This document shows positions 6,575-52,850 of a stretch of 64,000 bases of DNA, in pieces. The first letter of the stretch is position 1. Each line of letters begins with the position of its first letter. The stretch covers positions 10,651-74,650 of the forward strand of contig DAOOUC010000001.1 of the NCBI GenBank assembly GCA_035390665.1, in the 5' to 3' direction. Under the pieces are notes generated by a model. That model saw only the letters and a program-made list of their open reading frames with translations, ran no database searches and was not told the DNA's origin. The translations under genes and the position numbers were made by a program. Source of the DNA: an archaeon. GTDB lineage: Archaea > Iainarchaeota > Iainarchaeia > Iainarchaeales > CSSED10-239.

Positions 6575-6658
6575 TATTTTTCACCTAATATATATTTATG
6601 AAAACAATATATTAAAAAGTTACCTGGAGCGGCCACCTTTTGTAATATTTGGAATTTA

Positions 6659-7200: not shown

Positions 7201-7251
7201 CTATAAGTAATTATAGTTGGATGCTCTTTTAAACCCTATAGTTATATTAGT

Positions 7252-7296
7252 GTTTTTCAAAAGGGCATATTTTTCGGGGGGGTAGCTGTCCAGTGC
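7252..7296. repeat. Copy A (short) of a conserved element: GTTTTTCAAAAGGGCATATTTTTCGGGGGGGTAGCTGTCCAGTGC
   Basis: Near-identical to 16577-16622 and closely similar to 10623-10652. Lies 52 nt upstream of the antitoxin start (minus) and 78 nt upstream of the FlaI-like start (plus). Confidence 0.85.
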
Positions 7297-7373: not shown

Positions 7374-9686
7374 ATGAAGATTGGTAACTATACTGTTGGA
7401 GATTATGTTGTTGATAATGAGGGGGGAAAGAAAAAGCTTGTCTTTGATTGTAGACATTGTGTTTACAATACTTCTATATCTGATGATCCGAGATGTAGAT
7501 ACCACGTCATGAAGATATTAGAAACCGTTGATGCTGATGAAGTTATTTTAGCTGAAGTTTATGAAAGAGTTTATACTCAAAAACAAATTTCATACTTAAG
7601 AGAAATGGTTGATCTTTTGCTTGATTTTGAAAATAGAGCTGTTTGGATTTCATCTCATCTTGGTGTGGATGATATTGATTGTGAAGAGTGCTATCCACAA
7701 AGACATAATAATATTATTAGATTTACAAGAGATCTTTTAGCATATGATCCTATTGCCTCATATATTTCACTTTTAAGAGAAATAGAAAACACAAGAAACA
7801 GAGGAGAAGAACAATCTGATAAACCTTGTTCTAAATGTTTTAAAGCCAATCTAAAACACCTTCTTTCTTTAAGAGAACAATATGATTCTACTGATTTTAT
7901 TAAAGCATTAAAACCAATTCTTACTAAAGTAAAAGACTTTAATGACTTAACTGACATTTATAAAACACTATTTGAAGCACAAATTAAACCTGCTTTTATT
8001 GGCTCACAATTACTTAGAAGTGATGCAGAAAAATTCGAGCTTGTTGACGAATATCCTGTTTTAACATCTAATGTTCAGATTTTTAAACACCCTGAAAAGG
8101 TTGAATTTATTTACAATATCAATCCTCCAGAGTACACTTTGTCTCCGGATCATTATTTTGTTTTATCTAAAACAAAAGAAACTGTTGCTAACTATCAGCC
8201 AGGTAAAGTAACTTTAACTTCTGGAAGTGGAACACGAAAATATTTCCAAAGAATATATCAGAGCACAATTTCTGATGTTGCAAGAAGATATGGAATTAGT
8301 CTTTCACCAGATGACGTTATTTCACTTTCAGAAATTGTTACAAGATATACTATTGGTTACGGGATATTAGAGATGGTTTTATCAGATAGAAGAGTAACAG
8401 ATGTTTATATTGATTCTCCAATTGGTGGTAGACCAATCTATCTTGTGCATTCACAATATGGCCAATGTCAAACAAATATTCTTTATACAGACAAAGAAGC
8501 AGAAAGCCTTATTGGAAAGATGAGAGCAATGTCTGGCAGACCATTTGATGATGCTCATCCAATCTTAGACTTTGATATACCCGATCTTAACACAAGAGTT
8601 GCTGCTATTGGAAGGCCTCTAGCCACTGATGGTAATGCTTTTGCTTTTAGATTACATAAAGATACTCCTTGGACTTTGCCTCAACTTATTAATTTTAAAT
8701 CACTTAGCCCACTAGCTGCAGGATTATTATCTTTTTTTATTGATAATAACTCTACTCTTTTAGTTGCAGGTTCTCGTGGTTCTGGTAAGACTTCTTTAAT
8801 GACAGCTTTAATGCTTGAAATCTTACAGAATAAAAGAATTATTGTTCAGGAAGATACCCTCGAGTTACCAATTATGTATCTTAAAGATATTGGATTTAAT
8901 GCTCAAAGACTTAAAACTAAATCAGCTGTTGGTGCTGGAGAAGAATCTGTTGAAGTTGAACCTGCTGATGCCTTAAGAACTGCTCTAAGACTTGGCGATT
9001 CTGCAATCATTGTTGGTGAAGTTAGAAGTGTTGAAGCAAAAGTTCTTTATGAAGCAATGAGAGTTGGTGCTGCGGGAAACGTTGTTATGGGGACAATACA
9101 CGCAGATTCTGCTTATGCTGTTTGGGATAGAGTTGTTAACGACCTAGAGGTTCCAACAACCTCTTTTAAAGCAACTGATTTGGTTGTTGTTGCAAGACCA
9201 ATAAGATTTAAAGGCTCTTTAAAAAGTTATAGAAGAGTTGTTCAGATTACTGAAGTTAAAAAACATTGGAATCAAGACCCAGATGCAGAAGGCGGACTTC
9301 TTGATATTATGACTTATGATGCAAGTAAAGACTCATTAATACTTAATGAAGATGCACTTAAGGATTCTGATCTTTTTACAAAGATTTCTACTCTTTCAGG
9401 TTTAACTATTGAAGAAATCTGGGATAATATTAAGATGCTTGCAGGAGAAAAAGAATATCAAGTAGAACTTGCAAGAGAACTTAAATGTATTGAGCTACTT
9501 GAAGCAGAAAACACTGTTGCTGCACACAACAAGCTATTGATACTTAAAGAAGAATGGATAGAAGACCATGGAAAAGTCAATTATTCAGAGCTACTTACAG
9601 AATGGAAGAGATGGTATAAAGAAGACTTCTGCCCAAAGATTGTAAAAAGAATAAACGAGAATAAAGAAAAGGAAAAAGAAGAATAA
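7374..9686 (+). CDS. FlaI/ArlI-GspE-VirB11 superfamily secretion or pilus-assembly ATPase with a long N-terminal extension
   Basis: Walker A GSRGSGKTS, Walker B-like IIVGEVR, His box GTIHA. N-terminal cysteine cluster CRHC...CRYH. 770 aa. Confidence 0.85.
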   Translation: MKIGNYTVGDYVVDNEGGKKKLVFDCRHCVYNTSISDDPRCRYHVMKILETVDADEVILAEVYERVYTQKQISYLREMVDLLLDFENRAVWISSHLGVDDIDCEECYPQRHNNIIRFTRDLLAYDPIASYISLLREIENTRNRGEEQSDKPCSKCFKANLKHLLSLREQYDSTDFIKALKPILTKVKDFNDLTDIYKTLFEAQIKPAFIGSQLLRSDAEKFELVDEYPVLTSNVQIFKHPEKVEFIYNINPPEYTLSPDHYFVLSKTKETVANYQPGKVTLTSGSGTRKYFQRIYQSTISDVARRYGISLSPDDVISLSEIVTRYTIGYGILEMVLSDRRVTDVYIDSPIGGRPIYLVHSQYGQCQTNILYTDKEAESLIGKMRAMSGRPFDDAHPILDFDIPDLNTRVAAIGRPLATDGNAFAFRLHKDTPWTLPQLINFKSLSPLAAGLLSFFIDNNSTLLVAGSRGSGKTSLMTALMLEILQNKRIIVQEDTLELPIMYLKDIGFNAQRLKTKSAVGAGEESVEVEPADALRTALRLGDSAIIVGEVRSVEAKVLYEAMRVGAAGNVVMGTIHADSAYAVWDRVVNDLEVPTTSFKATDLVVVARPIRFKGSLKSYRRVVQITEVKKHWNQDPDAEGGLLDIMTYDASKDSLILNEDALKDSDLFTKISTLSGLTIEEIWDNIKMLAGEKEYQVELARELKCIELLEAENTVAAHNKLLILKEEWIEDHGKVNYSELLTEWKRWYKEDFCPKIVKRINENKEKEKEE

Positions 9687-9690
9687 CTAA

Positions 9691-10584
9691 CTAAGCAGAA
9701 TACTTTATTATTTTCTTTTTAGGACTAAGTAATTTCTTTTGCTTCTCTTCTAATTTTTTCTTTTCAGAAAAGTAGTTGTCTTTTGTAACTACTTTTTGAT
9801 AGGTTTTTGATTCTAGTTCTTTTCTTGCATTCTTTGCTATTCCTCCACCAATTATTCCTGACTCTTTGTTTTCTGTAAAACCTGTTGATTTTGTGGATTC
9901 TGCAACTTTTCTTGTTGATAATTCTGCTAGGGCTGTAAAAATAATTTCTGCATCAGTCATGTGATCTCTTAAATTGTCTTTATCTATGCCTTTTAGTTTT
10001 TTATGTTCTTTAACTGTTAAATCTGACCACTCTTGATGTATTATGTTTGTTAATATAGCATATTCCTCTGGAGTTTTAATCTCGTGGTTCTTCCAATAAT
10101 TTGTTAATTTGTTTCTTATTTCTTGACCAAGCATTCTTTGTTGTATCCATTGCTCGTCATAACCTTTTTGTAGCCAGATATTTCTGGCTCTGTTTATGGC
10201 TAATTCTGGATCGATTATTTCTTTTATTCTTTGATTACCAACTCTAGCAAGCCAAAGTTTGAATGGTTCTGCTTTCTTTGAAGGAATTGATTGTATTATT
10301 CTAAATATTCCTTCCAAGTTTGCACAATCTGTTTCATAAAATTTGCCATCAGAAGATTGTAATTTCAGTTGTACGATTTTACCGTACAACTGATTATTAG
10401 TTGTAACCACTTCGCTTCCTTCTTCTTTCAGTTTTATTTTAAGATCTGACCAATATCTCTTTGGCTCAGAACTTTCAGTTAATGCCCTTACCACATCTAC
10501 TACAGAGTACCACCAATCTTCTTGATGCCACATCCGTCTTATATTTTTATCTTCAAAAACCTCAATTTGATTTATATCACTCAT
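9691..10584 (-). CDS. Bro-N (BRO/KilA-N superfamily) DNA-binding domain protein
   Basis: N-terminus FEDKNIRRMWHQEDWWYSVVDVVRALTES fits the Bro-N pattern. ATG at 10584 with upstream GGTGAT is preferred over the TTG at 10596 used by the ORF track. Confidence 0.65.
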   Translation of the reverse strand: MSDINQIEVFEDKNIRRMWHQEDWWYSVVDVVRALTESSEPKRYWSDLKIKLKEEGSEVVTTNNQLYGKIVQLKLQSSDGKFYETDCANLEGIFRIIQSIPSKKAEPFKLWLARVGNQRIKEIIDPELAINRARNIWLQKGYDEQWIQQRMLGQEIRNKLTNYWKNHEIKTPEEYAILTNIIHQEWSDLTVKEHKKLKGIDKDNLRDHMTDAEIIFTALAELSTRKVAESTKSTGFTENKESGIIGGGIAKNARKELESKTYQKVVTKDNYFSEKKKLEEKQKKLLSPKKKIIKYSA

Positions 10585-10617
10585 CTTGATCACCAATAAT
10601 ATAGTAGCGATTATAAG

Positions 10618-10800
10618 AAGGGGGTATTTTCGGGAGGGTAGCTGTCCAGTGCAACCGGTTGCGGTCTCATAAAAAATCCTAATTTTTTAGGATCCTAAAA
10701 AGTCTTTGACTTTTTTTGAGGTTGGCGCCCAGCCTGGTTGTGTGTTGTTCTACTAACCCCTTTAGAAAAGTTGTTGCGATCCCAAAAACTACGATTTAAA
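10618..10800. repeat. Copy B (long) of the conserved element, with an internal hairpin plus T-run
   Basis: Block 1 at 10623-10654 (GGTATTTTCGGGAGGGTAGCTGTCCAGTGCAA). Block 2 at 10734-10773 (CTGGTTGTGTGTTGTTCTACTAACCCCTTTAGAAAAGTTG) matches 16654-16692. 7-bp hairpin at 10676-10693; T7 run at 10711-10717. Confidence 0.8.
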
Positions 10801-11312: not shown

Positions 11313-12509
11313 CTAATATAAAAATCCAAATAGAAACAATGGGATTTTATTACCATCACAAGCTAAACTATCTACTACTAAATAGTCTGCTTTTTGCTTG
11401 TTTTTTTTATTTTCTCCACCAACTTCAAAGACTTTATTATTTATCATAAAATCCGCAGATTTCTCTTTACCTGTCTTAATATAACACTCAGCATTACTTA
11501 AATATACAAAAAAATCTTCTCTAAGTGAGCCAAGATTTGGATTTTTATTTAAGGTGTGATTAAAAAAATATCTAAATGGCAAATTAAGAAATATTTTAGG
11601 ATCTGTTCTTATTAGTGGATATCCTGAATTACAAGATCTTAGTTGTTTTAAAATATTTATTTTTTCTAAATCTGCAATTATAGCTACAATTGTATTTCTA
11701 CTCACTCCATTTATAGATTTGGATAAATTTGAATAACTCATTTCAAATGGAGCAGATGTAGATAATAGATATAAAATGTTATATATGTCTGTTTCAACTT
11801 TCGGATTTATAGATCTTAAGTTACTGATGTCTGAATATATTATTTTTTTAAAAATATTATCTATTGATTTATAAAATTCAGAGATATCTTTACTTTTATT
11901 ATATAGAAAACCACCGAATTTGCAATAATCAGTATAATAATCATAATATATTGAATAATTATTTACTAATGTTTTTCTTTTTTTATTATCTAGTAAGTCT
12001 TCTTGCTTTATTGGTTCTATATTTTTATCATACATTATGTTAATGTATTCTCTTAGGGATGCTTGTTTTAATTCATATAATAAAACCCTTCTTGATAAGT
12101 CTGCGCCCTTTAATATATTTAGAGAAGAAGAACTTGTAAAATAAATTTTTACTTTTTCTTCATCATAAATATTTTTTAAATGTTGTTGCCAATTTTCTTT
12201 GTAAGCTATTTCATCTATAAATATGTTTTTATATTCTTTTTTTATTAAAAATTTTAAAATATCATAAAGGCTATATTTAGATAAATATATAGAATCTGCT
12301 GAGAAATAAATTGCATCTTTTTTTTTGTCAAATAATTGTAATAGTAATATTGTTTTACCAATTCCTCGTAAACCAGTTATTCCTATAAAATAATCAGAAT
12401 TATAATTTACTAGATCATTATAAAGATATCTAGTTTTTGGATATCCCTTAACTACTTCTTTTTTATTTTGACTTTCTTGAAACATTTTAGAAAAGATAAC
12501 TTCATTCAT
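11313..12509 (-). CDS. AAA+ ATPase of the COG1373 type (AAA domain plus DUF4143-like C-terminus)
   Basis: Walker A GLRGIGKT, Walker B NIFIDEI. Overall architecture is like the paralogue at 16775..18061. Confidence 0.7.
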   Translation of the reverse strand: MNEVIFSKMFQESQNKKEVVKGYPKTRYLYNDLVNYNSDYFIGITGLRGIGKTILLLQLFDKKKDAIYFSADSIYLSKYSLYDILKFLIKKEYKNIFIDEIAYKENWQQHLKNIYDEEKVKIYFTSSSSLNILKGADLSRRVLLYELKQASLREYINIMYDKNIEPIKQEDLLDNKKRKTLVNNYSIYYDYYTDYCKFGGFLYNKSKDISEFYKSIDNIFKKIIYSDISNLRSINPKVETDIYNILYLLSTSAPFEMSYSNLSKSINGVSRNTIVAIIADLEKINILKQLRSCNSGYPLIRTDPKIFLNLPFRYFFNHTLNKNPNLGSLREDFFVYLSNAECYIKTGKEKSADFMINNKVFEVGGENKKNKQKADYLVVDSLACDGNKIPLFLFGFLY

Positions 12510-12824: not shown

Positions 12825-15188
12825 TTATTGTATTGCTGTGATGAAAGCTCTTGTAGCTGCACCTGTATCATCTGCAGTGAAACCAGCAACAACTATGTTA
12901 CCTGTTGTAGTATCTTTACCCATTACCCATTGACCTGCTTGTGTTAAGTAATCGTTTGTTACACCAACAGCTAACTTGTTAGCTAAGTGACCACCGACTA
13001 TGATCTTTGTACCAGCAACTGAAGCTAAATCAGACTTTACTAAGTTGATTGGATCAACATTTGCAGGAACTGTTGTTGTGTATGAACCTGTAGTTGCATC
13101 TGTTCCTTCTGTTCCTTCTGTTGTTGTTGTTCCGTTACCTACGAAAACTTTTCCATATAATTTATCTTCAGGAACTGTTGCTGTAAATGTTCCACCGTCT
13201 ACTTCTAACTTAGTACCCCATGTTGTATAACCGAATCTCAAATCGTCTGTTTCTTCTTGATTTAATGTGAATCCTGTTGCTACAACTTGATCTAATCCTG
13301 CTTCGTAAGAGGAGTCGTCTGTATCAACTAATTCTCCAGTATATGCATCAATATATGCTACTGCAGTTTGTGAAGAATCATCTATTGTTAATGAAAACAT
13401 AGATTCCATATCTGTGTCTGTTACTGTTGTTGCGCCAACATTTGTTGCACCAACATATGTATCTGCATTTGCATCATCTGTGCCTATATCGTAGTAGATT
13501 TTACTTACTGTCCATGATTGACTAGATTCTAATGTATCTGTTGCGCCGTCTTTTAAAGCAACAGCTAATTCTGTTATTGTGTCTGTATCTTCGTTTAAGA
13601 ATACACCGTATGCTATCTTTTTAGTCTCGTTGTTATATAATGGGATTGTTATATCTACGAATCCAACGAAATCATCTGCTTCTCCATCTGATGCATTTCC
13701 ATCGAAATAGAATTTTTCTGTAGCTGCAGGGGTTGCTGTAGATTTCCATGACCAACTGCTAGCTGTAGATAAGAATTTACCGTCGTCATTTTCTAATTGA
13801 ACGGTGAAATATCCTGATTCCTTTGTACCGGTTTGTGTTAAATCATCGTCTGTATAGAATTCGAAGTATAAATTTTTTCCATCGATTTCTTTTGTTGTTG
13901 TATAATTGTCTCCATCTGCATAAGTGCTGTCGTCGTGTTCATAGATAAATATATCGTGATCATCGTCGCTTGCATCAGTATATGAAAGATATCCGTTTTC
14001 AACAATTACTTGTTTACTTGATTCATCACTTAATCCTAAGAAATTTATTTTTGCAAAGTTGTTTGGTAATGAAATTTCATCTCCAACTTTAAGTGCATCA
14101 TCATCTTTATAACGTATATCTTGATCATCATTATAGAAACTGATTGTAGTTACTGTGTCTCCAGAAGAATATGACCCCTCTGCATTAAATTGAACTTTCC
14201 ATAATTCGTCTCCTATTTCTGGGAAGTCTTCAACAATTTGTCCATCAGTTAAATCAATTCTTGCACTTGTTCCTGAAACAACAGTTACTCTTGAATTATA
14301 TACTGTGTCTATTTCTGTATCTATGTCTAAGTAATCATCAAAGATAGTATCTCCATCGCCATAGACTTCTGTTGCTAATGTAGTTCCATCTTTACTTATT
14401 GACATTTCAACTTCGTATTGTGTTCCTGATGATGAACTCTCTAATATTTCTTCTATTGTTACAGTATAGTCTTCAACTTCAAAAGATGCACCTACAGTAT
14501 ATGGTATTGTTGCTTTATTTTGTACTAAGGTCATTGTATTTGTGGTATAATCTTCTAATGTATATTGTTTACCGAATATATTGAATTTTAAGTCGGGACT
14601 TCCGTTATCTGTAGCATTTACATCTATTCCTGGAGTAAACTCTATTCTATACTCTATACCTTCTTTATCAATTGCTGCGGTTAAATCTGCTATGTCTTTA
14701 TCGTCATCAAATGAAACAGTGGATGTAATATCTAATTTTTCTTTGACATTTATTGTATCGTCACCAAATTCTTCATCATCTACTCTTACATCATAATCTC
14801 CAAGTAGCGTGTAGTCGCCATCATCTAATTCTAATGTTCTTGAATTGCCTAAATCAAACAAATCGTCACTTAATTTACCGTCTCCGGAAACTGTTGTTGT
14901 TCCTGTTGTTCCTTCTGTGCCTGGAATCTCGTATGTGTGTGTCTCGGTTGTGTATGCTTTAGATGCAATTGCTGCTGCAATGTTACCTGCCCAGATTGAA
15001 TCTGCTGCTTGTGATTCGTTTCCAACTATTATTGTTGCTGTTGGCATTCCGTTTGTGCCGATTACGTCGCCCTTTACTACTGGACTACCGAAATCAACTT
15101 GTGCTGCTACTGCTGCACCTAAGAAACTTGCACCTACTGCAAGTGCTGCTGCGCCAGCAATAACTTTTTTTGTATTTATATTCTTCAT
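12825..15188 (-). CDS. Secreted S-layer-like surface protein
   Basis: Signal peptide KKVIAGAAALAVGASFLGAAVAA. Acidic, Thr/Asp-rich, 787 aa. GGAGG SD about 8 nt upstream. The C-terminal IIVGGHLANKLA segment is reminiscent of methanococcal S-layer proteins. Long upstream leader. Confidence 0.55.
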   Translation of the reverse strand: MKNINTKKVIAGAAALAVGASFLGAAVAAQVDFGSPVVKGDVIGTNGMPTATIIVGNESQAADSIWAGNIAAAIASKAYTTETHTYEIPGTEGTTGTTTVSGDGKLSDDLFDLGNSRTLELDDGDYTLLGDYDVRVDDEEFGDDTINVKEKLDITSTVSFDDDKDIADLTAAIDKEGIEYRIEFTPGIDVNATDNGSPDLKFNIFGKQYTLEDYTTNTMTLVQNKATIPYTVGASFEVEDYTVTIEEILESSSSGTQYEVEMSISKDGTTLATEVYGDGDTIFDDYLDIDTEIDTVYNSRVTVVSGTSARIDLTDGQIVEDFPEIGDELWKVQFNAEGSYSSGDTVTTISFYNDDQDIRYKDDDALKVGDEISLPNNFAKINFLGLSDESSKQVIVENGYLSYTDASDDDHDIFIYEHDDSTYADGDNYTTTKEIDGKNLYFEFYTDDDLTQTGTKESGYFTVQLENDDGKFLSTASSWSWKSTATPAATEKFYFDGNASDGEADDFVGFVDITIPLYNNETKKIAYGVFLNEDTDTITELAVALKDGATDTLESSQSWTVSKIYYDIGTDDANADTYVGATNVGATTVTDTDMESMFSLTIDDSSQTAVAYIDAYTGELVDTDDSSYEAGLDQVVATGFTLNQEETDDLRFGYTTWGTKLEVDGGTFTATVPEDKLYGKVFVGNGTTTTEGTEGTDATTGSYTTTVPANVDPINLVKSDLASVAGTKIIVGGHLANKLAVGVTNDYLTQAGQWVMGKDTTTGNIVVAGFTADDTGAATRAFITAIQ

Positions 15189-15608
15189 TTTATTTCCTCC
15201 ATTGTTGATTTTCTTTTTCTAGAAAAGAAAACCGTTTTGTTTTATGAAGATTGAATCTGCATTTATGTTTTGACCTAAAAAAATAAAACGGTACTAAACA
15301 GATTCACACTAATGTCTCGAAGTAATTACTTCAAGATATAAGACTTTATTGTGGAATAATGTTTATAAATGGTTTGTTTTTGGATTGTTAACAACTGGTG
15401 CTTATAAATGCATGCAGAGAAAGGGATTACAGGAAATATTGGTTGTTTGGTTATGTATAACTAACTACTAAAAAGCTAATTTTTAAAAAAAATTAAAAGT
15501 AAGAGACTAATATATATATAATATATTATAAAAGAGAAATAAGATTACAAAAATCCCTGTAAGACTTATATCTTTTTCTGCCCTTTCTTCTTTAGATATA
15601 TCTCTAAC

Positions 15609-16565
15609 TTAATCTAATCTGTCTAATATGGTTAATGAATCTTTATCTAGTTTTGAAAATGCAACCCATCTTTTGCCAAGATCTTTAATGGATGCACCTA
15701 AATGATATATTTCTTTTTTATCAAGAATTAAAAAACGATCATGGCTTTTAGTAAAGTGCTTTAGTTTAATATTTGAATATTGATTGTTATATTTCTCCAA
15801 ATCAAGTTTAAGTTTTTCTGTAATTTTATCTGTATATATTGTAATTTCTATATTTTTTAGATTTGAAAATAGCACAAGAACTGATTCATCTATGTAGTTA
15901 TCTATAAGAATTATTGATTTATTTGCATTTTTAAAAAGATTATTAATAAATAGGTAAGCGTCAAATATTTGACCATCATAAAAAACACCTTGTGTTTTTA
16001 ACACACTTTTATTTGAAATTGCATCAAATATCTTTTCTACTTTTTTATCAGTTTCTATTTGTTTGTTTTCTAAATTATCTACTCTTACAAACAAATCAGC
16101 ATTTTTGTGTATTAATTGCCTCATAGAAATAAAGGCACGCATTATGTAAATATTTATCAATATTGCCCTTTTACTTTTTAAAACTCCAGAAAGCATTGCT
16201 ATGCCTTGTTCAGTAAAAACGAATGGAAGTTTACGTTTCCCGCCCCATTCTAAACTTGAAGTCACAAATTGTGACTTCAAGATTTTTGAGTTTTGGTTTG
16301 AGATTGCAAATTGTGACATCAAACGATTATCATCAATACTAGCATTTTCAGTTAATTCCATCAGAATTTCAAATTCCTTAGAAGTTAATTGAAACATAAA
16401 ATCTTCAGGAAATCTATCACTGTTTCTCTTAACGGCCTGATTCAATACTTTAGTAGGGACACCATAAAGTTCTGCAAGATCGCTGTCAAGCATTACTTTT
16501 GTGTTTCTTACCGTGTGTATTTTACTAGTTAAGTTTTCTACAAGTACTAAATTATCTGAAGTCAT
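15609..16565 (-). CDS. ORF6N (KilA-N-like) DNA-binding domain protein
   Basis: IHTVRNTKVMLDSDLAELYGVPTKVLNQAVKRNSDRFPEDFMFQL is the ORF6N signature. Conserved C-terminal module HDRFLILD...YHLGASIKDLGKRW. Confidence 0.7.
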   Translation of the reverse strand: MTSDNLVLVENLTSKIHTVRNTKVMLDSDLAELYGVPTKVLNQAVKRNSDRFPEDFMFQLTSKEFEILMELTENASIDDNRLMSQFAISNQNSKILKSQFVTSSLEWGGKRKLPFVFTEQGIAMLSGVLKSKRAILINIYIMRAFISMRQLIHKNADLFVRVDNLENKQIETDKKVEKIFDAISNKSVLKTQGVFYDGQIFDAYLFINNLFKNANKSIILIDNYIDESVLVLFSNLKNIEITIYTDKITEKLKLDLEKYNNQYSNIKLKHFTKSHDRFLILDKKEIYHLGASIKDLGKRWVAFSKLDKDSLTILDRLD

Positions 16566-16576
16566 AAATATATATT

Positions 16577-16782
16577 GTTTTCAAAAAAAGGCATTGTTTT
16601 CGGGGGGGTAGCTGTCCAGTGCAATCTACTGTTTTCTGGTGGGTAATCTGCCCGATTGTGTGTTATTCTAATGGTGCTCCTTTAAAAAATTGCTTTACAC
16701 AAATTTTTGGCTTCTATAAAACCAGACAGTAGAATAACCGGTTTTGCCAGAGATCGGTTGGTAGAGTGCCCGGTTTATTTTT
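16577..16782. repeat. Copy C (long) of the conserved element; candidate structured RNA
   Basis: Block 1 at 16577-16624, block 2 at 16654-16692. A 12-bp long-range helix, ctactgt(ttt)ctggt 16626-16640 pairing with accagacagtag 16721-16732, encloses block 2. Ends in TTTATTTTT (16774-16782). Confidence 0.8.
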
Positions 16783-18061
16783 GAGATAATAGCCACTGAT
16801 ATAATGGAATATAATATATTGTATTTTTGCCAAGCTTTTCTTCTTTAGATAGATCTTTAGTAATTATTGTGCCTTTATCTATATTTAATGAAGCCATAGC
16901 TTCTAGAAGACCATTTATTTCTCTATCTTTTGTAGAGTCATTAAAATCAAAACAAACTTGTATTGCTTCTACTTTGTTATTAGTTACGGCAATAAAATCA
17001 CATTCGCTTTTACCTTTAAAATAGTAAACTTCTTTATTTTTTCTTTTTAGCTCAATAAAAACAAGATTTTCAAAATTCCAGCCATCGTTAGTGCCTGGTC
17101 TTTTAAGTAAACAATTAGAAAGACCTGTATCTATTACATAACATTTTTTAGGATTACTGTTTTGTTTTCTTTTTGAATTTGAATATATTGGTACAAAGAA
17201 AAAATACATTGTGTTATCTATATAATCTGAAAACAAATAAAGTGTGTCTTTACTTATTGCTCTATTTTGAGACTTTAAATAATTATAATAGCTATTTACT
17301 GAAAAACCCCTTGAGTTGTTATTTACTAAATACAAAAGTAAATCTTTAACTATGTCTATTTGCTTTATGTTATATCTTTCTATAATGTCTCTAAAAATTA
17401 GAACATTAAAATAATTTTGTAGAACTTCGCACCTTATTTGTGAATCTATTGCTATTACTTCTGGAAAGCCCCCATTTGTTAGATAGTTTTCTAATTCTCT
17501 AACTAAGACATGCCTTTTAGAAGAATATATAGTTGTATTATCAACCTTAATTCCCTTAAACTCTAAATATTCTATAAAACTAAAAGGATAAACATAAATA
17601 TCATAGGTTCTACCTCTTAATTCTGTTGATATTTCTTTACTTAATAATTTTGCTGAAGAGCCAGTAATAAATATTTTACATCTCTCTTTGTCGTAAATTC
17701 TTCGTATAAATTTTTGCCAACCATCTACACTTTGAATTTCATCAAAGAAAAAATAAATTTCCTCACCTTTATTTTGAGGATATAACTCAAAGTAATAATC
17801 TAAAATCTTTTGAAAATCAGTTATATTAAAATCCGAAAGTCTTTCATCTTCAAAATTTAAATATATTATTTTATCTTTTGAGATATCTTTTAAATCATAT
17901 ATTATCTGATATAGCATACTTGTTTTACCTGATCTTCTTGGGCCAATTATTGTAATTATCTTATTTATATCTGGTATTTTATAATATCTAGGCAATAATT
18001 TTTTTTCAGGACACCCTTCTAATAATATTACTTTAAATAATTCTTTGTCTAACATAAACAC
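16775..18061 (-). CDS. AAA+ ATPase of the COG1373 type (AAA domain plus DUF4143-like C-terminus)
   Basis: Walker A GPRRSGKTS, Walker B FFFDEIQ. 428 aa. Confidence 0.75.
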   Translation of the reverse strand: MFMLDKELFKVILLEGCPEKKLLPRYYKIPDINKIITIIGPRRSGKTSMLYQIIYDLKDISKDKIIYLNFEDERLSDFNITDFQKILDYYFELYPQNKGEEIYFFFDEIQSVDGWQKFIRRIYDKERCKIFITGSSAKLLSKEISTELRGRTYDIYVYPFSFIEYLEFKGIKVDNTTIYSSKRHVLVRELENYLTNGGFPEVIAIDSQIRCEVLQNYFNVLIFRDIIERYNIKQIDIVKDLLLYLVNNNSRGFSVNSYYNYLKSQNRAISKDTLYLFSDYIDNTMYFFFVPIYSNSKRKQNSNPKKCYVIDTGLSNCLLKRPGTNDGWNFENLVFIELKRKNKEVYYFKGKSECDFIAVTNNKVEAIQVCFDFNDSTKDREINGLLEAMASLNIDKGTIITKDLSKEEKLGKNTIYYIPLYQWLLSQK

Positions 18062-18094
18062 ACACCATAATATATTTAGTTACAAACACATTAA

Positions 18095-18152
18095 AAAGGT
18101 TTCCTTCTAAAAAGGAAAGATTTTACTAAAGGTTTCCTTCTAAAAAGGAAAG
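18095..18152. promoter_or_regulatory. Two tandem 25-bp copies of AAAGGTTTCCTTCTAAAAAGGAAAG, each an inverted repeat
   Basis: Copies at 18095-18119 and 18128-18152 (33-bp period), 34-91 nt upstream of the ATPase start at 18061. Inner palindrome TTTCCTT-CTAAAA-AGGAAA. Confidence 0.55.
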
Positions 18153-18171
18153 GATTGAAAAAACATAAGAA

Positions 18172-18840
18172 TTATCTTCTTAGTTTAGATAATTCTGCAT
18201 TTTCTCTTTTTAGATCATATATCATCTGAGCATAACCATGAGTCATTTCTGTTATTATGTGACTTGTTTGTTGAAGATCAGAAATTGTAACTGTGTATTT
18301 ATCTGGTTTTAAGATTTCAACAGAAGTTGCCCCATAAAAGTAAATTAATCTAAATAAAGAACTTATATTTGGGCAACTAAGCTCTGCAGAAATAAAAGTA
18401 GAAAAAAGATCTTCATGAAGTATAATTTCAGCAATATCTAAAGAATATATAGTATAAACTTCATCAGTTTTTAATGCAGAACTAATTTGCTCCATTGCTT
18501 TTCTTAAATCTCCTTTATCATTAGCTTTAGATTCAATTAAAATTGCAACCTTTATTTGGTTCTTATCAGTTTCTGCAATTTTCTTTTTTTCAGATAAACT
18601 TTCTTGAACTTCTTTAGATAAAGAGTACTTTATTGGGTATCCTTCCTTAGTTATTAACTTTAAAAACAACATATTTTTTAGAACCTTAATAAGTTCGTCA
18701 TATTTTGCGCCAGGAATTGCAGACAATAACTCATCTTCGGTTTTAGAACCGTTTTTAAGTTCTTTGCCAACAAGGGTTTGTAACTCTTGTATTGCAACTC
18801 TTTCCTTTAATTGAGAGGATTCATAATCTAATTCAGTCAT
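18172..18840 (-). CDS. Hypothetical protein, possible N-terminal winged helix
   Basis: 222 aa. No diagnostic motif recognised. Confidence 0.3.
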   Translation of the reverse strand: MTELDYESSQLKERVAIQELQTLVGKELKNGSKTEDELLSAIPGAKYDELIKVLKNMLFLKLITKEGYPIKYSLSKEVQESLSEKKKIAETDKNQIKVAILIESKANDKGDLRKAMEQISSALKTDEVYTIYSLDIAEIILHEDLFSTFISAELSCPNISSLFRLIYFYGATSVEILKPDKYTVTISDLQQTSHIITEMTHGYAQMIYDLKRENAELSKLRR

Positions 18841-18911
18841 ATATTTTCACATTTAATATATAATTTATTAGAGATTAAGTATTTAAAAGGTTTATAATCT
18901 AGAAATAATAG

Positions 18912-19145
18912 ATGAACTACTTATATTTACTTACTGGAATTATACTAATAATTGTTGCAATAATTATATTTGGATTATTAAAAAACATCTTACTAAATAG
19001 TATTCTAGGAGCACTTGGGTTTTTAGTTTGCTATTTTATATTTGGAATAAAACTTCCTTTATTACCAACAATAATAGTATCTTCCATTTTTGGACTAGCG
19101 GGCCTTGGAGCAATGCTTGTCTTAAGATTTTTTGGAATTTCTTAA
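18912..19145 (+). CDS. Small multi-TM membrane protein (BofA-like, tentative)
   Basis: 77 aa, glycine-rich hydrophobic helices. Confidence 0.3.
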   Translation: MNYLYLLTGIILIIVAIIIFGLLKNILLNSILGALGFLVCYFIFGIKLPLLPTIIVSSIFGLAGLGAMLVLRFFGIS

Positions 19146-19148
19146 AAA

Positions 19149-19415
19149 TCAAAAATAACCCTTATACCATTTTTCATATTGTGTATGATTTCCTACAAAA
19201 ACAACTGTTCTTGTTTTTGTGATTTTATTTTCAAAAAATGCAATTCTGTATTGCCCAACTTCTAAAATAAAAAAATTTACTTTATTAAAATGTCTAGCAC
19301 AGATATCAAATTGTAATTTATTTATTTTTTTAAAAATGTGTTCTTGGATTGTTTGATCTAAATCATTAAAATAAATATCCCAATTATTATCAAAATTTAT
19401 AGTCCATGTGCCCAT
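19149..19415 (-). CDS. RelE/ParE-superfamily toxin-like protein
   Basis: 88 aa. QYRIAFF...VVFVGNHTQYEKWY resembles the RelE/ParE C-terminal pattern. Paired with an upstream small gene. Confidence 0.5.
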   Translation of the reverse strand: MGTWTINFDNNWDIYFNDLDQTIQEHIFKKINKLQFDICARHFNKVNFFILEVGQYRIAFFENKITKTRTVVFVGNHTQYEKWYKGYF

Positions 19416-19482
19416 AAAAATAGGAATAAATTAAAATATATAATAAAATGTAATTACAACTATTTTGGATAAATGAAAAAAA

Positions 19483-19758
19483 TTACTTCTTTTTTAACAA
19501 ATGCTCGTGCTTTTTCATAACTTCTTCATAAGTTATGTATTTCTGATTATTTGCTTTCATTTCTTTTTCTTTTTTCTTAAATGCAGCGATTAATTTTGGA
19601 TCATTTATTTCTTTTATAGTATCTACTAGTTGATATTTATCATTCAATGTTAGAATGCTAATCTTTAAAGCATCAGTTTTGGATCTAGCAATACCTACTT
19701 CTACTGCTTTTTGTAATACTAATTCTGGAAACCCTTTAATTTCTACTGTTGTTCTCAT
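19483..19758 (-). CDS. Putative antitoxin of the RelE-like toxin
   Basis: 91 aa, upstream on the same strand. Architecture-based assignment only. Confidence 0.35.
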   Translation of the reverse strand: MRTTVEIKGFPELVLQKAVEVGIARSKTDALKISILTLNDKYQLVDTIKEINDPKLIAAFKKKEKEMKANNQKYITYEEVMKKHEHLLKKK

Positions 19759-19808
19759 GCATCAATTCACTATGTATTTAATGCACAGAAATATTTAAAA
19801 AATAATAG

Positions 19809-20672
19809 TTAAATGTTCCCTAAATAAACATTTTCTAAACCTTTGTCTTTTGCTATTTTTTCTGCAAGCTTTAAGGTTTCTATTTTGGTTGGAGTGATGT
19901 GTTTTAGACGATAATGTGGAAAAGATCTAGAAAAATGTAGAGGGATTTTTGGAGAAACAGAAACAATAAAGTCAACAACCTCTTCTATTTCTTCTTTTGA
20001 AGTATTATAATTTTCAATCAAAAGATTTGTTATCTCTATGTGAATGTTGTGGTTGTGTAGCTCTTTAATGTTTTCTTTAATGTGCTTTGTTTGTATGCCT
20101 GGAATTAAAGTATCATAAAATTTTTGTGCCCCTTTTAAATCAACATTAATGGCATCTAAATATGGAAGAATATCTTTTAAATACTCTTTTGAAAAATAAG
20201 CATTACTTACAAAGATATTTTTTATACCTAACTTCTTTGTTTTTTTCATAATATCTAATGCATAGTCTCCAAACACAGTTGGTTCTGTGTAAGTGTAAGA
20301 GATTGATGGACAATTATTTTCAAGAGCCATATTAATTATATCATCAGAAGTAAATTCCTTTAATTTAGATAAATCAATATTCTTGCTGTTTGAGATTGTG
20401 TGATTTTGACAAAATGCGCAATCAAAATTACAACCTGGTGTTCCAAAAGAAAGAGTTCTTGTTTTTGGTAAAAAATGATAAAGTGGCTTTTTTTCTATAG
20501 GATCAATATTAATAGAAATTGGCTTATTATAAACTAAAGAAAAAAGTTTTCCATCAATATTTTTTCTAACCTTACAAAAACCAGTTTCGTTTTCTCTAAT
20601 AACACAAAAACGACAACATAGATTACACAAAACCTTATTATCATCAAGAGATTTAAAATATTTTGATAACAT
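19809..20672 (-). CDS. Radical SAM enzyme of the AmmeMemoRadiSam / PflA-like activase type
   Basis: CNFDCAFCQN (Cx3Cx2C) cluster preceded by an N-terminal CNLCCRFC...C cysteine motif. 287 aa. Confidence 0.75.
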   Translation of the reverse strand: MLSKYFKSLDDNKVLCNLCCRFCVIRENETGFCKVRKNIDGKLFSLVYNKPISINIDPIEKKPLYHFLPKTRTLSFGTPGCNFDCAFCQNHTISNSKNIDLSKLKEFTSDDIINMALENNCPSISYTYTEPTVFGDYALDIMKKTKKLGIKNIFVSNAYFSKEYLKDILPYLDAINVDLKGAQKFYDTLIPGIQTKHIKENIKELHNHNIHIEITNLLIENYNTSKEEIEEVVDFIVSVSPKIPLHFSRSFPHYRLKHITPTKIETLKLAEKIAKDKGLENVYLGNI

Positions 20673-20704
20673 AAAAAAAAGAAAAAATAAGATTAATTAA
20701 AATC

Positions 20705-20955
20705 TTATCTTGGTCTTAGGAAGAAAAAATAACCTACTGCTCCAATAACAACTAAAATTCCACCAATTATTGTTACTACTCCGCCTGGGCTACTTGCAAA
20801 ACCTGCAAAACCTGTTAAGCCACTTGGACTTGGAGTTTCAGCAATTGGAGTTTCTTCTAATTGAGTAGTTTCAATAGGGGTTTCAACAACAGGGGTTAAT
20901 GTTTCTCCATTACCTGCATTTGTATTTTCTGGAACAGGTTGTGGTTGTTCAACTA
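20705..20955. repeat. 251-nt segment near-identical to 21716..21966 (shared C-terminal linker and anchor coding region)
   Basis: Direct comparison shows only 3 substitutions, all synonymous (ttc cta vs ttt tta; gtt vs gtc). Confidence 0.9.
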
Positions 20956-21688
20956 CTGGTTCTGAAACTACTGGAGTCTCTTGAACAGGAGCTTCTGCTG
21001 GTTCAACAACCTCGGTAACTGGAGTTGGTCTAATTCTTCTTCCACCGCCTCCACCTGTTGTTGCAGGAGCAATTACATTAACTGTTCTTGTAACTTCTAT
21101 TGCGCCATTACCTGCTCTGTCTTTAACATTATATGTTATTGTATATGTTCCTACTGTTGTTGTATCTACTGGATTAACTGTTATTACAACGTCTGTGATA
21201 TCTCCGTCTACATCGTCTGTGGCGGTTACACCTGCGTCTGTGTATGTTTCTCCTAAAGTTACATTAACTGTTGCATCGCCTAATAATGTTATTACTGGTG
21301 CAACTTCATCTACTGGTGGTACTGGTGGTTCTATCATTTTTGGAAAGACTCTTACAATTCTTGTAACTTCATCTGCTGCATTACCTGCAGCATCACTTAC
21401 ATTATAAGCAATTGTGTGAGGACCAATAACGGTTGTATCAACAGGTAACCCTGTAACCACTATACGCTCAGTTATATGTTTATCTATGTTATCTTCTGCT
21501 GTTGCGCCGGCATCAACATAAATTCCGCCTTCTTCTATATGAACAACTGCATCTCCTAGTAAAGTTATTACTGGTGCAATTTCATCTAATTCTATAGGTG
21601 GTAGCCCTTCAGATGGATCTGCAAAAATAGGAGATAACAATAGCATAAAAGAAACTATTATCGCGATTATATTTTTTGTGGTTTTCAA
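20705..21688 (-). CDS. Surface protein with two Ig-like (DUF5011-like) repeats, a Pro/Thr/Glu linker and a C-terminal TM anchor
   Basis: Signal peptide. Repeats (I/V)APVITLLGDA...YTDAG(A/V)TA.D...G.(H/Y)TI.YNV.D.AGN...VTR.V.V. Tail GLTGFAGFASSPGGVVTIIGGILVVIGAVGYFFFLRPR. Confidence 0.6.
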   Translation of the reverse strand: MKTTKNIIAIIVSFMLLLSPIFADPSEGLPPIELDEIAPVITLLGDAVVHIEEGGIYVDAGATAEDNIDKHITERIVVTGLPVDTTVIGPHTIAYNVSDAAGNAADEVTRIVRVFPKMIEPPVPPVDEVAPVITLLGDATVNVTLGETYTDAGVTATDDVDGDITDVVITVNPVDTTTVGTYTITYNVKDRAGNGAIEVTRTVNVIAPATTGGGGGRRIRPTPVTEVVEPAEAPVQETPVVSEPVVEQPQPVPENTNAGNGETLTPVVETPIETTQLEETPIAETPSPSGLTGFAGFASSPGGVVTIIGGILVVIGAVGYFFFLRPR

Positions 21689-21715
21689 AATTTTTCACCA
21701 TTTTTTATTTTTATT

Positions 21716-21966
21716 TTATCTTGGTCTTAAAAAGAAAAAATAACCTACTGCTCCAATAACAACTAAAATTCCACCAATTATTGTTACTACTCCGCCTGGG
21801 CTACTTGCAAAACCTGCAAAACCTGTTAAGCCACTTGGACTTGGAGTTTCAGCAATTGGAGTTTCTTCTAATTGAGTAGTTTCAATAGGGGTTTCAACAA
21901 CAGGGGTTAATGTTTCTCCATTACCTGCATTTGTATTTTCTGGGACAGGTTGTGGTTGTTCAACTA
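21716..21966. repeat. Second copy of the 251-nt C-terminal anchor coding repeat
   Basis: See 20705..20955. Confidence 0.9.
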
Positions 21967-23914
21967 TTGGTGTTGGTATTGGGTTTGGAATTTCTGGTGC
22001 TTGTGTCTCTTGTGTTGTAATTGCAGGAGTTATTCTTGTTCCTCCGCCTGTTGAATAAATATTTATTGAATTATCTGCTTCTGTTAGATTTTCGGCTTCA
22101 TCTTTTGCAATAACTTTAACTTCTTGATCTCCTAATGGTAATGTATCGTTAACTTCTACACTCCAGGTTTCCCCAGAAATTGTTGCTTTGTAGGTGTTGC
22201 TATTTATAACAACAGAAACATCTGTTGCATTCTTATCTTTTACTTTTCCTGTAATGACTGGGGTTCTATCTGTTGTAGATAAACTATCCATCTCAATTAT
22301 AGGATTAGTTTTATCAATAATAATCTTTTGAGTTTTTAATATCGCATTTCCATAATTATCTTTCAAACGAACAGACAATAAATATTCTCCCTCTTCTAAA
22401 GGAAGAACTGGTGCCGTTCCAGAAACTGAATTACTTAAGTCAATTTCAAATTTACCATCATTAAATAACACATTATATTTTCTATAATTTAATTGGTTTG
22501 GTTTTGTTGATCTAAGCATTGCAATCATTGTTGTTTCAGCAATAGGATTAACCATTATTTTTCCATTTATTTTCTCTGGAGATGTATTTTTTACTAATCT
22601 TGTACCATTATCTAAATCAAAATAAACTTCTTTTGTACTTATCTTTAATTGAACAGTGACTTCATCAACATTTTGTGCAGAATCATAAGCTTTTACTAAA
22701 ACCTTATATTCCCCATCTTTTAATTTATCTAAATTACAAGTAATATAATTATATCCATTTGCAATACTTGGGCTATATCTTACGACACAATCTTTTAGTT
22801 CCGAATATTCTGTGTCTTGTATTGAATACTTGACAATAATTATTTCATTTAATTTATCTATTATTGTTCCTGTAATATTTATATCTGAAACATTAGATAA
22901 TATTGTTTCTTTATCTAATTCAAGTTCTGGAGCAATTAAATCTTTTTTTAAATCCCCCATATATTCTTTACTTACATTATCATAAGCATCAGAAACAGTT
23001 ATCTTAAATCTAACAAATCCATCATCAAGGGAAGATAAATCTAATCCTTCTAATTTTTCAAAACTTAAAGTATTTACTGAGTCTTCAAATATTAATTTAA
23101 TATTTTTATATTCTTTTGTTGTTTTTATTTTTAAAGAATAATTTTTATAATTTGATGCATTAATATTTGGTGCATCTACTTTTTGTATTTCAGGAAGAAT
23201 TGTATCTTTAATAACATATTGAGAATAATCTGTAGAATTATTTGCTCTATCTACTACTTCTAAATTAATTTTTATTTTACCGTCATCAAAATCCGATAAA
23301 TCAATAATTATTGAAATTGGACAACCGCTAGCTATCATTACTGGATTTGCAAGACATTCCTCAAAATGCCCTCTTAATTCTTCTGATTTTGTTATTGTTT
23401 TTGTTTTACCTGTTATTGTATAATTTAGAATTGAATCTTTTTCAATTTCTTCTAATTTAAAAAATATGGGGTAAGCTTCTTTATTATGATAATTAATTGC
23501 ACCTAAAGACACTACGTCAAACTTTGGTCTTGTTGCATCAATTGATTTTAGAACAATCTCTTCGTTTTCTTTCTCTAAGATTTTTCCATCTTCTAATAAT
23601 CCCTTTATATTTCCTAACTGTAATGGAATTTCTTGAGAACTGTCTCCTTCTTCTACCTTATAAGTAGCAACATATTCTTTAGAGTCTTCTGTTGTCCAAG
23701 TTAGTTCTTTAGAATTATACTCTTTTGGCTCAATTTCTGAAACGATTGCTGGTTCATTTAAAAGAACATAGAAAGAGATTGAATCGCCTATTCCTAAAAA
23801 ACCTTTTTCTTTAGCATCTGAACCCACTTGCATTATATCTGGATCAGCAAAAACCCCAGATATTAATAAAACAAAAATAAATATTACACTTAAATTTTTA
23901 AAAACATTTTTCAT
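21716..23914 (-). CDS. Large secreted surface protein (Ig-like beta-rich repeats) with the same C-terminal anchor as 20705..21688
   Basis: Signal peptide VIFIFVLLISGVFA. 732 aa. The last 82 aa are identical to those of the downstream gene. Confidence 0.55.
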   Translation of the reverse strand: MKNVFKNLSVIFIFVLLISGVFADPDIMQVGSDAKEKGFLGIGDSISFYVLLNEPAIVSEIEPKEYNSKELTWTTEDSKEYVATYKVEEGDSSQEIPLQLGNIKGLLEDGKILEKENEEIVLKSIDATRPKFDVVSLGAINYHNKEAYPIFFKLEEIEKDSILNYTITGKTKTITKSEELRGHFEECLANPVMIASGCPISIIIDLSDFDDGKIKINLEVVDRANNSTDYSQYVIKDTILPEIQKVDAPNINASNYKNYSLKIKTTKEYKNIKLIFEDSVNTLSFEKLEGLDLSSLDDGFVRFKITVSDAYDNVSKEYMGDLKKDLIAPELELDKETILSNVSDINITGTIIDKLNEIIIVKYSIQDTEYSELKDCVVRYSPSIANGYNYITCNLDKLKDGEYKVLVKAYDSAQNVDEVTVQLKISTKEVYFDLDNGTRLVKNTSPEKINGKIMVNPIAETTMIAMLRSTKPNQLNYRKYNVLFNDGKFEIDLSNSVSGTAPVLPLEEGEYLLSVRLKDNYGNAILKTQKIIIDKTNPIIEMDSLSTTDRTPVITGKVKDKNATDVSVVINSNTYKATISGETWSVEVNDTLPLGDQEVKVIAKDEAENLTEADNSINIYSTGGGTRITPAITTQETQAPEIPNPIPTPIVEQPQPVPENTNAGNGETLTPVVETPIETTQLEETPIAETPSPSGLTGFAGFASSPGGVVTIIGGILVVIGAVGYFFFLRPR

Positions 23915-50364: not shown

Positions 50365-50370
50365 AATTTA

Positions 50371-52821: not shown

Positions 52822-52850
52822 CTGCTTTTCTCTTTGTTTAAAAAAAGTTA

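Follow-up and report, generated by a model that had tools for sequence, protein, structure and literature searches.

A ~60-bp upstream module shared by unrelated mobile-type and repair genes in uncultured archaea: a possible portable promoter/operator

How do genes that are not homologous to one another come to start beside the same stretch of non-coding DNA? The question is raised by a 64,000-nt stretch of an archaeal chromosome (contig DAOOUC010000001.1, GTDB Iainarchaeales), here called the window, which has about 28% G+C and encodes MCM, RPA, PPDK, RtcB and EF-1alpha. Gene regulation in uncultured archaea of the DPANN type is scarcely known, the control of archaeal repair and defence genes is an open question, and archaea, to our knowledge, are without LexA. 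A preliminary description of the window had pointed out a relatively G+C-rich element in three copies, the best of them at 16577-16782, and had offered three models for it: a family of small structured RNAs, a shared upstream operator or 5' leader, and a recombination or cassette-boundary scar. In this study, we describe the element as a conserved unit of about 60 nt that recurs in related archaea in a fixed orientation to gene starts, and we weigh what it may be. The reading that we favour, with about an even chance of being right on the sequence comparisons made here, is a portable, lineage-specific promoter/operator module of ~60 bp, putatively bound by a protein, that would co-regulate a small set of genes.

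Copies of the module and the genes that they head

Three copies of the module and the three minus-strand genes or operons behind them are present in the window:

7237-7296, plus strand: copy 1 of the module, with an A/T box at about 7237-7250 and its core at 7271-7296
10595-10652, plus strand: copy 2 of the module, with the A/T box AATAATATA at 10595-10603
16564-16622, plus strand: copy 3 of the module, the best copy of the preliminary description
6659-7188, minus strand: antitoxin-MazF operon, headed by copy 1
9691-10584, minus strand: Bro-N-domain gene (Pfam Bro-N), ATG at 10584, headed by copy 2
15609-16565, minus strand: ORF6N-domain gene (Pfam ORF6N, E=7.6e-34), ATG at 16565, headed by copy 3

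The core of the module, the 26-nt sequence TTTTCGGGRGGGTAGCTGTCCAGTGC, occurs without a mismatch at 7271-7296, 10627-10652 and 16597-16622, each time on the plus strand, and is the strongest repeat in the window once the tRNAs and one coding repeat are set aside. None of 100 dinucleotide-preserving shuffles of the window contains a match to it, even at three mismatches, and the number expected by chance is 0; an alignment of copies 1 and 3 extends over 59 nt, with 78% identity. The three-copy element claimed for this DNA is therefore real, and each copy does abut the start of the minus-strand gene that had been named for it.

In copy 3, the A/T box (16564-16575) overlaps the ORF6N start codon (complement of 16563-16565), and an A-run spacer leads to a pyrimidine-purine (Y-R) step at 16595-16596 and then to the core at 16597-16622, which reads TTTTC GGGGGGG TAGCTGTCCAGTGC; the start codon lies 36 nt from the G-run and is without a Shine-Dalgarno sequence. 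A near-identical copy 3, with the variant GGGTGGG, is carried by another contig, L046 (other contigs are cited by such L numbers). In copy 2, the A/T box directly adjoins the complement of the Bro-N ribosome-binding site (GGTGA, 10590-10594), and GGGGG at 10620-10624 is followed by the Y-R step at 10625-10626 and the core at 10627-10652; the Bro-N start codon, preceded by the Shine-Dalgarno sequence GGTGAT, is 47 nt from the G-run. Copy 1 heads an antitoxin gene at 6952-7188 (ATG at 7188; VapB/RHH-like, slightly under the Pfam cut-off), after which comes a MazF/PemK-like toxin gene at 6659-6985, and a separate canonical B recognition element (BRE)/TATA, GGGTTTAAAAGA in the minus-strand reading, lies between the module and the antitoxin start. 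Orthologues of copy 1 were found in L014, L027, L034 and L037, and L027 has the orthologous antitoxin-MazF pair together with the module.

Copies outside the window were collected in several ways. When one genome per species was scanned, nine true copies came to light in five metagenome-assembled genomes labelled 'uncultured archaeon', along with one chance match. In metagenomes, a slightly degenerate pattern matched 26 loci, every one of them genuine, and scanning a viral contig collection produced one chance match only. Further variants with one to three changes were retrieved with nhmmer, and more diverged versions came from contigs that encode homologues of the neighbouring genes. After removal of near-duplicates, the search in related genomes had yielded 30 distinct copies, all on related contigs of uncultured archaea. 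One 293-kb contig holds six copies, and two others hold three each, at spacings of 37 and 28 kb; copies on one contig are mostly on the same strand and 3-40 kb apart, and there is a single copy per intergenic region. No description of the module sequence was found in a search of the literature, which brought up two unrelated papers on rabbit primers.

The consensus of the 30 copies, aatAtAttat..t.tt..AAA.agggGtt.TTTTCGGGgGGGTAGCTGTCCAGTGCgA, defines a conserved unit of ~60 nt that consists of an A/T box, a spacer of ~20 nt, GGGG, the Y-R step and the core. The A/T box, which had been placed about 30 nt upstream of the G-run in the window, keeps this position in the 30 distinct copies from other contigs; it is centred ~25 nt upstream of the Y-R step and spans about -29 to -21 relative to that step. 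Position -7 is a pyrimidine and position -6 a purine, each in 27 of the 30 copies. Within the core, the variable positions of GGG[G/A/T]GGG and TAG[C/A/G]TG occur in all combinations, and past GTGC and two purine-rich positions conservation drops sharply, an all-against-all BLAST of the 500 nt after each core giving short chance matches only. The invariance inside the searched 21 nt is partly a matter of ascertainment, as the scans retrieve near-exact cores only. TTTTC, the Y-R step, GGGG and the A/T box all lie outside the search patterns, and their conservation is thus independent evidence.

What sets the module apart is its orientation. Every scorable copy among the 30 has the start of an opposite-strand gene 35-96 nt from the G-run; the script that located open reading frames could not score the left gene in three very short flanks (the copy at 48 in L005, and those in L022 and L036). 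The rule covers at least 15 independent gene contexts, and for an autonomous element a constant divergent start would be very unlikely to arise by chance (0.5^15, ~3e-5, assuming equal odds of either orientation). Three classes of distance can be told apart, in step with the translation signals: starts at 35-37 nt have no Shine-Dalgarno sequence, those at 45-53 nt have GGTGAT, and those at 79-96 nt have an additional canonical BRE/TATA in between. No such rule holds on the right side, where either a same-strand stop codon lies 7-260 nt off or the promoter or start of an opposite gene follows.

The genes served belong to at least eight unrelated families. The mobile-type neighbours seen in the window, Bro-N, ORF6N and the antitoxin-MazF pair, recur elsewhere, and KilA-N, the YhcG/DUF1016 nuclease, RadC and Rad51/RadA are added to them, along with small proteins without an assigned function and a conserved protein of 486 aa. 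In two genomes an ORF6N gene with the module stands directly upstream of uvrA-uvrC: at L049 (10001-15655), L050, L053 (1305-5284) and L054, the module-bearing ORF6N gene comes directly before uvrA (and uvrC), with uvrB nearby. This position suggests that an antirepressor-like protein is linked to nucleotide excision repair.

Several neighbours were looked at in their own right. The 486-aa protein (L004 4589-6049, L005, L013) always adjoins a core and has no match in Pfam, NCBIfam or PDB; its interpretation as part of a split family-B DNA polymerase was dropped on that account. Two small core-adjacent proteins (L012, L032) were considered as autoregulated regulators and rejected, as they show no detectable relation to one another and have no homologue in the window. 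A parallel to the SOS response through DinD was likewise set aside: JGI names some Bro-N homologues 'DNA-damage-inducible protein D', but the window Bro-N protein matches E. coli K-12 DinD by BLASTP only at E=0.04 over 48 aa.

Lineage, half-sites and promoter geometry

The Bro-N and ORF6N proteins have homologues at 50-65% identity across many bacteria and archaea (~60% for the bacterial homologues of the Bro-N gene), and these genes therefore appear to move between the domains. The upstream regions of two bacterial Bro-N loci (L041, L043) contain no trace of the module. At archaeal Bro-N homologues of 64-87% identity, the module is whole, half-kept or decayed: a full copy with one change at 64% (L039), half A, TTTTCGGGGGGGTA, alone and followed by an unrelated palindrome at 66% (L040), and a decayed copy at the syntenic locus of 87% identity (L045). 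Judged from these loci, the specificity of the module is for the lineage and not for the gene. Two Woesearchaeota contigs have half B alone, GTA(G/C)TTGTCCAGTG, before Bro-N (L038) and before ORF6N (L051), in both cases exactly 8 nt upstream of a canonical TATTTAAA box that is itself 21-22 nt before the ATG. This is how a leaderless promoter is laid out in archaea when an operator or upstream site adjoins the BRE.

Ordinary genes in the window have C/G-rich bases and TTTTTAAT or TTTAAAAG ~38-48 nt before the ATG, then ATATATTA and GGTGA. Read on the gene strand, the module presents the core, a C-run and GAAAAYR; next come CCCC, a box like TTTTGAAAA and ATATATTAT, and lastly the ATG, with or without a Shine-Dalgarno sequence before it. 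In this order it resembles a promoter or 5' region preceded by an invariant core, and its flanking boxes are like those of the ordinary promoters here, with CC and TTTTTAAT, then ATATATTA and GGTGA.

On the favoured reading, the layout in the direction of the gene would be GCACTGGACAGCTA (half B), CCCYCCCGAAAA (half A), the purine-pyrimidine step, CCCC, the T/A-rich box, the ATATATTAT box, an optional Shine-Dalgarno sequence and the ATG. The 27-bp core, near-invariant, unstructured and asymmetric, would be the putative DNA binding site of a sequence-specific protein that could act as a repressor or roadblock or as an activator, and the C-run and A/T boxes that flank the core would provide the basal promoter or overlap with it. 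Common control would thereby extend to Bro-N, KilA-N, YhcG, RadC, antitoxin-MazF, RadA, a few others and ORF6N, which in two genomes is followed by uvrA-uvrC. The module would spread by moving with its gene as cassette-like units come and go, and genes of bacterial origin would carry it in this archaeal lineage only. An operator is supported by the fixed position and orientation of the module relative to the start codons of non-homologous genes, by its sharp limits and lack of structure, by its promoter-like flanks and by its movement together with the gene. Among the three models first offered, the shared upstream operator or regulon fits best, given the fixed orientation, the lineage specificity and the TATA-spaced half B. 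The gene set is partly coherent, as it includes Rad51/RadA, RadC, the YhcG nuclease, KilA-N and ORF6N before uvrA-uvrC.

A number of points weigh against the operator. Candidate TATA boxes that face leftward inside the module are never at the canonical spacing of other genes. Relative to a candidate TATA, the core is variously placed: about nine copies have a good TATA against the right edge of the core, which would then fill the TATA-to-start spacer, in five copies the promoter-like sequence described below as block 2 is 40-110 nt right of the core, and in the Woesearchaeota form the TATA is on the other side of it. The plus-strand geometry is equally good, with an A/T box ~25 nt before a step that is Y in 27/30 and R in 27/30 copies. 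A near-invariant asymmetric site of 27 nt is longer and better conserved than typical operators, which is in part ascertainment bias. The coherence of the gene set, lastly, is weakened, since the likeness of Bro-N to DinD is marginal and the 486-aa neighbour has no family match.

The plus-strand geometry leads to the first rival, a divergent promoter. The preliminary description had found the A/T box consistent with an archaeal promoter firing into the element, and such geometry is indeed present in front of the conserved Y-R step. Plus-strand RNAs would then start at this step, 6 nt before the G-run, and begin RUUUUCGGGRGGGUAGCUGUCCAGUGC before becoming variable; the 27 nt would serve as a 5' tag, such as a protein handle, or the transcript would be antisense or convergent to the 3' end of the neighbour. 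The fixed spacing of the A/T box and the pyrimidine and purine at -7 and -6 fit this explanation well, the strongest conservation starts exactly downstream of the step, and the hairpin modules M1 and M2 come directly after the core in several copies. On the other hand, nothing is conserved past +28, there is no common terminator, and neither structure nor an Rfam match was found. An autonomous RNA gene needs no divergent start within 100 nt at each scorable copy, and about nine copies have another TATA right after the core. In the two Woesearchaeota contigs, half B is upstream of the TATA and hence outside any plus-strand transcript, as it lies between the TATA and any plus-strand start. Taken together, we consider a divergent promoter unlikely.

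Sequence to the right of the core bears on a second rival, in which the core is part of the 5' untranslated region (5'-UTR) of the left gene. The two long copies had been noted to share a second block, block 2, at 16654-16692 and 10734-10773. In copy 2 it belongs to an optional module:

10653-10800, plus strand: optional G+C-rich module M2, directly after the copy 2 core, including block 2 (10734-10773)

In the minus-strand reading, block 2 of copy 2 shows a canonical-looking BRE/TATA, TTTTCTAAAGGGG, with ACACACAA ~22 nt on, and that of copy 3 a TATA-like TTTTTTAAAGGAG upstream of ACACACAA; we infer that block 2 of M2 may be a promoter aimed at the core and the gene. The block recurs within M2 in L018, L046 and L048, which bears out the earlier observation, and is marginal on its own, as a 17-mer with one mismatch for which 0.43 chance matches are expected at up to three mismatches. 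In five copies altogether (window copies 2 and 3, L018, L046, L048), block 2 can be read on the gene strand as a canonical BRE/TATA and start region aimed through the core.

According to the 5'-UTR explanation, the core would be transcribed as GCACUGGACAGCUACCCYCCCGAAAA and bound by a post-transcriptional regulator, a proposal that we find improbable. Transcription would come from right-side promoters (block 2 or the adjacent TATA) or by read-through from the upstream gene, a route to which we would assign the same small chance. The five copies with block 2 agree with it, and about half of the copies have the end of a same-strand gene 7-260 nt upstream, from which read-through would take in the core. 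However, no right-side promoter stands at a consistent distance from the core, half B in the Woesearchaeota is upstream of the TATA of a leaderless gene and so is not transcribed with it, and the sequence is unstructured.

M1 and M2 are both G+C-rich and occur only directly after GTGC, save for a reversed copy of M1 in L003. The final bases of the core and M1, GAGAGCCGGTTTCGCTCAGCTCGCGCGCAATG, together make a hairpin; M1 was seen in L001 (1820-1900), L021, L025, L028, L039 and L003 (2090-2130). M2 of copy 2 contains an insert of 53 nt (10667-10719) with an 18-nt palindrome of the AAAATCCTAA/TTAGGATTTT type, and the L018 match is without this insert. Palindromes of 19 nt, NNNNNCAAATTGNNNNN, whose arms vary between copies yet remain complementary, are found in the window at 16259-16277 and in L001, L003, L006, L018, L019, L021, L024, L025 and L028. 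Some are inside Bro-N or ORF6N coding regions (the one in the window encodes K-S-Q-I-V-T) and others in non-coding DNA right of cores; such palindromes may be inserts that form hairpins, or else sites where a protein binds.

A further explanation would make the core a relic, either of a tRNA promoter and the first ~20 nt of the gene, left as integration-site copies, or of an archaeal origin recognition box (ORB) with TCCAGTG and the G-string; we regard such a relic as highly improbable. GGGGGGG-UA-GCU does resemble an acceptor stem followed by U8, A9 and the start of the D stem. However, ARAGORN and the Rfam tRNA model find nothing at any copy, 0/48 copies continue as a tRNA, the would-be position 11 varies freely (C/A/G), and real tRNA genes have different upstream regions. 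TCCAGTG(G) can be likened to the ORB dyad in what we take to be the ORB consensus, for which the reviews consulted, though they mention ORBs and the G-string, give no sequence for comparison, and the G-run is on the wrong side of the dyad relative to this presumed consensus. The copies are moreover 3-40 kb apart, mostly in the same orientation and one per intergenic region, and no member of the Orc1/Cdc6 family was found among the 40 window ORFs scanned.

If the module is an operator, its 27-bp core offers concrete bait for finding the regulator, and a small regulon would tie radA, ORF6N-uvrA-uvrC, radC and a nuclease to genes of mobile-element type. Imported bacterial genes would then owe their place in archaeal transcription to the gain of a promoter/operator that is portable and specific to the lineage. 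Should the core instead be an RNA tag or a site of recombination, it would be even more unusual.

The composite end of copy 3, and units gained and lost

Two features adjoin the copy 3 core on its right:

16623-16689, plus strand: native sequence right of copy 3, common to L046
16690-18121, minus strand: insertion of 1.43 kb that carries an AAA_14/DUF4143 ATPase gene (16775-18055, Pfam), outside the module

L046 matches 18122-20511 at 99% and 14934-16689 at 93%, and has no sequence between the two; 16690-18121 is thus a recent insertion, absent from this near-identical contig. Its left junction is in a TTTAAAAAA box (16681-16689), and a tandem duplication of 33 nt (18095-18127 / 18128-18160) adjoins the right one. 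The window has another, diverged AAA_14 gene at 11313-12509. The native part, 16623-16689, holds the 5' arm of the helix that had been proposed for this copy (16626-16640), a small GGG/CCC hairpin and block 2 (16654-16689). From the insertion come the 3' arm (16721-16732), the G+C-rich stretch and also the run of TTTATTTTT; this run and the AAA_14 stop codon at 16775 overlap. Since the insertion supplies its right part, the element as originally delimited, 16577-16782, is a composite of native DNA and an insertion end; the G+C-rich stretch and the TTTATTTTT run belong to the insertion and have to be taken out of it. For annotation, this G+C-rich region should be regarded as a putative control module plus the end of an insertion and not as an RNA gene.

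These results bear on the model of a structured plus-strand RNA of 100-180 nt. At the gathering threshold, Rfam finds only tRNAs in the window; at E<=10 on 16500-16900 it gives a single chance match of 13 bits, and on seven related loci nothing relevant. The statement that the element resembles no known RNA family is in agreement with these scans. Folding of 16590-16785 (a region of 186-196 nt) on the two strands gave z of -0.62 and -1.32, no better than shuffles. Core plus modules gave z of -0.1 to -1.7 against shuffles, and the 63-nt unit, as DNA or RNA, z of +1.2, +1.3, +0.5 and 0.0, again no better than shuffles. As for the 12-bp helix, both arms are present as sequence in the window, but the fold has z -0.62, the helix would pair native DNA with the insertion, and the 3' arm is missing from the closest relative, L046. 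With no Rfam match, no excess folding and no conservation downstream, the structured-RNA model finds no support. A small peptide was rejected as well, since neither a start codon nor a reading frame is conserved through the core.

Comparison with the syntenic contig L027 shows that gene-plus-core units come and go. The window has gained Bro-N, core 2 and M2 between a secretion-type ATPase gene and a DUF5652 gene, and L027 has a small gene with a core downstream of MazF that the window is without. The empty sites, at 6575-6660 of the window and, in L027, between the genes for the ATPase and DUF5652, have no core, and the core does not behave as a resident attachment site would. In L032 and L018, a YhcG gene is placed between two direct cores with duplicated right flanks, the duplicated tail in L018 being 63 nt long. 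On this evidence the core travels with its gene, and recombination around it shuffles neighbours.

Could the core then be a recombination or junction site of a gene-capture process other than the integron, with a recombinase in trans or homologous recombination between cores? We think this quite unlikely, although the points in its favour are several. Gene-plus-core units are present or absent between syntenic genomes, one-gene units have a direct core on either side and right flanks in duplicate (L032, and L018 with its tail), the same right flank accompanies different left genes (window copy 2 versus L018 at 8446), optional modules are inserted exactly after GTGC (L021 versus L006), captured genes have been transferred horizontally across domains, and copies on one contig mostly share their orientation. 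Against this, the syntenic empty sites are coreless, the module has no inverted repeats or hairpin, and copies by radA and by the 486-aa gene are stable in several genomes with no cassette. The AAA_14 insertion beside copy 3 used the TTTAAAAAA site and not the core. Among the 40 window ORFs scanned, the sole Phage_integrase match is a Xer-like protein of 284 aa at 57017-57871, 40 kb away. The cassette boundary of the preliminary description is thus retained as far as units are gained and lost, and loses ground on the coreless empty sites, the missing hairpin and the absence of an adjacent recombinase. There is only a slight prospect that the core marks a novel archaeal gene-capture system, in which foreign genes, many of them bacterial in origin (Bro-N, ORF6N, YhcG, toxin-antitoxin pairs), would be slotted by recombination at or beside a 27-bp site that brings an archaeal promoter, and it is no more probable that small cassette arrays would form in this way without an integron integrase or attC hairpins.

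Other classes of element were tried and rejected. A terminal repeat of an insertion sequence (IS) or a miniature inverted-repeat transposable element (MITE) was discarded, as nhmmer on both strands found same-orientation single copies only, and a mobile element was discarded with no match in phage or plasmid collections and one chance match in viral contigs. Single-stranded folds of copies 2 and 3 on both strands, at -0.5 to -2.1 kcal/mol, are no better than shuffles and do not suit an integron attC site. An integron array was not accepted because the element is at the 5' side of the gene and not at the 3' end of a cassette ORF, the empty sites are coreless, and no integrase is adjacent, the Phage_integrase match (57017-57871) being 40 kb off.

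The surrounding DNA shows further traces of rearrangement and transfer. In L027, 38 nt from the 3' end of the gene for the secretion-type ATPase are duplicated (7838-7875 and 8050-8087) on either side of an insert of ~175 nt with internal repeats, an arrangement that looks like a long target duplication left by some other insertion mechanism. The window has a direct repeat of 268 nt at 97% identity (20693-20960 / 21704-21971) in adjacent genes for Ig-like surface proteins. Genes for bacterial-type MutL and MutS (48646-52875) and for the Xer-like tyrosine recombinase (57017-57871) are found in this archaeal genome, and a cluster of three tRNA genes abuts mutS.

Relation to known systems

Archaeal operators and upstream activating sequences beside the BRE/TATA include the sites for Ptr2, TFB-RF1, Phr and TrmB-family regulators, which are mostly 12-20 bp long and often palindromic. 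The module is like them in that such a site lies just upstream of the TATA or between the TATA and the start, as half B does in the Woesearchaeota; it is unlike them in having a core of 27 bp that is asymmetric and contains a G7 run.

DNA-damage regulons that do not depend on LexA are also defined by promoter motifs, among them RDRM/DdrO in Deinococcus and PafBC in mycobacteria. In Moraxellaceae, the motif of DdaA, a WYL protein, marks a non-LexA regulon of DNA damage and defence with a conserved promoter motif (PMC12392091). The module shares with regulons of this type a single motif before repair and defence or mobile genes, here radA, radC, ORF6N-uvrA-uvrC, YhcG and the toxin-antitoxin pair. 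Its motif is longer and asymmetric, and most of its carriers are Bro-N, ORF6N or KilA-N genes. The connection of the module with repair is suggestive only.

Putative mobile promoters have been described by Nijveen, Matus-Garcia and van Passel for prokaryotic genomes in general, with sharing across taxa described for bacteria in the part of that account used here (PMC3575422). As far as that part goes, they are alike in that highly similar upstream sequences precede non-homologous genes, in several copies per genome and across relatives, and in that movement is independent of recognised transposable elements (PMC3575422). Compared with the same part of the account, the present module differs in belonging to an uncultured archaeal lineage and a restricted class of genes, and in having an invariant, non-promoter-like core of 27 bp between promoter-like boxes (PMC3575422).

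Integron cassette arrays and attC sites have been reported in Archaea (PMC9668308). Short same-orientation arrays with a repeated element, gain and loss of cassettes, toxin-antitoxin cargo and genes that cross domains are common to integrons and the module. In contrast to integrons, the module is at the 5' side of the gene, is conserved in sequence and not in structure, and has no hairpin, no adjacent IntI and coreless empty sites. The closest described phenomena are therefore mobile promoters and the motif-defined regulons of DNA damage and defence, and integrons are alike in outline only.

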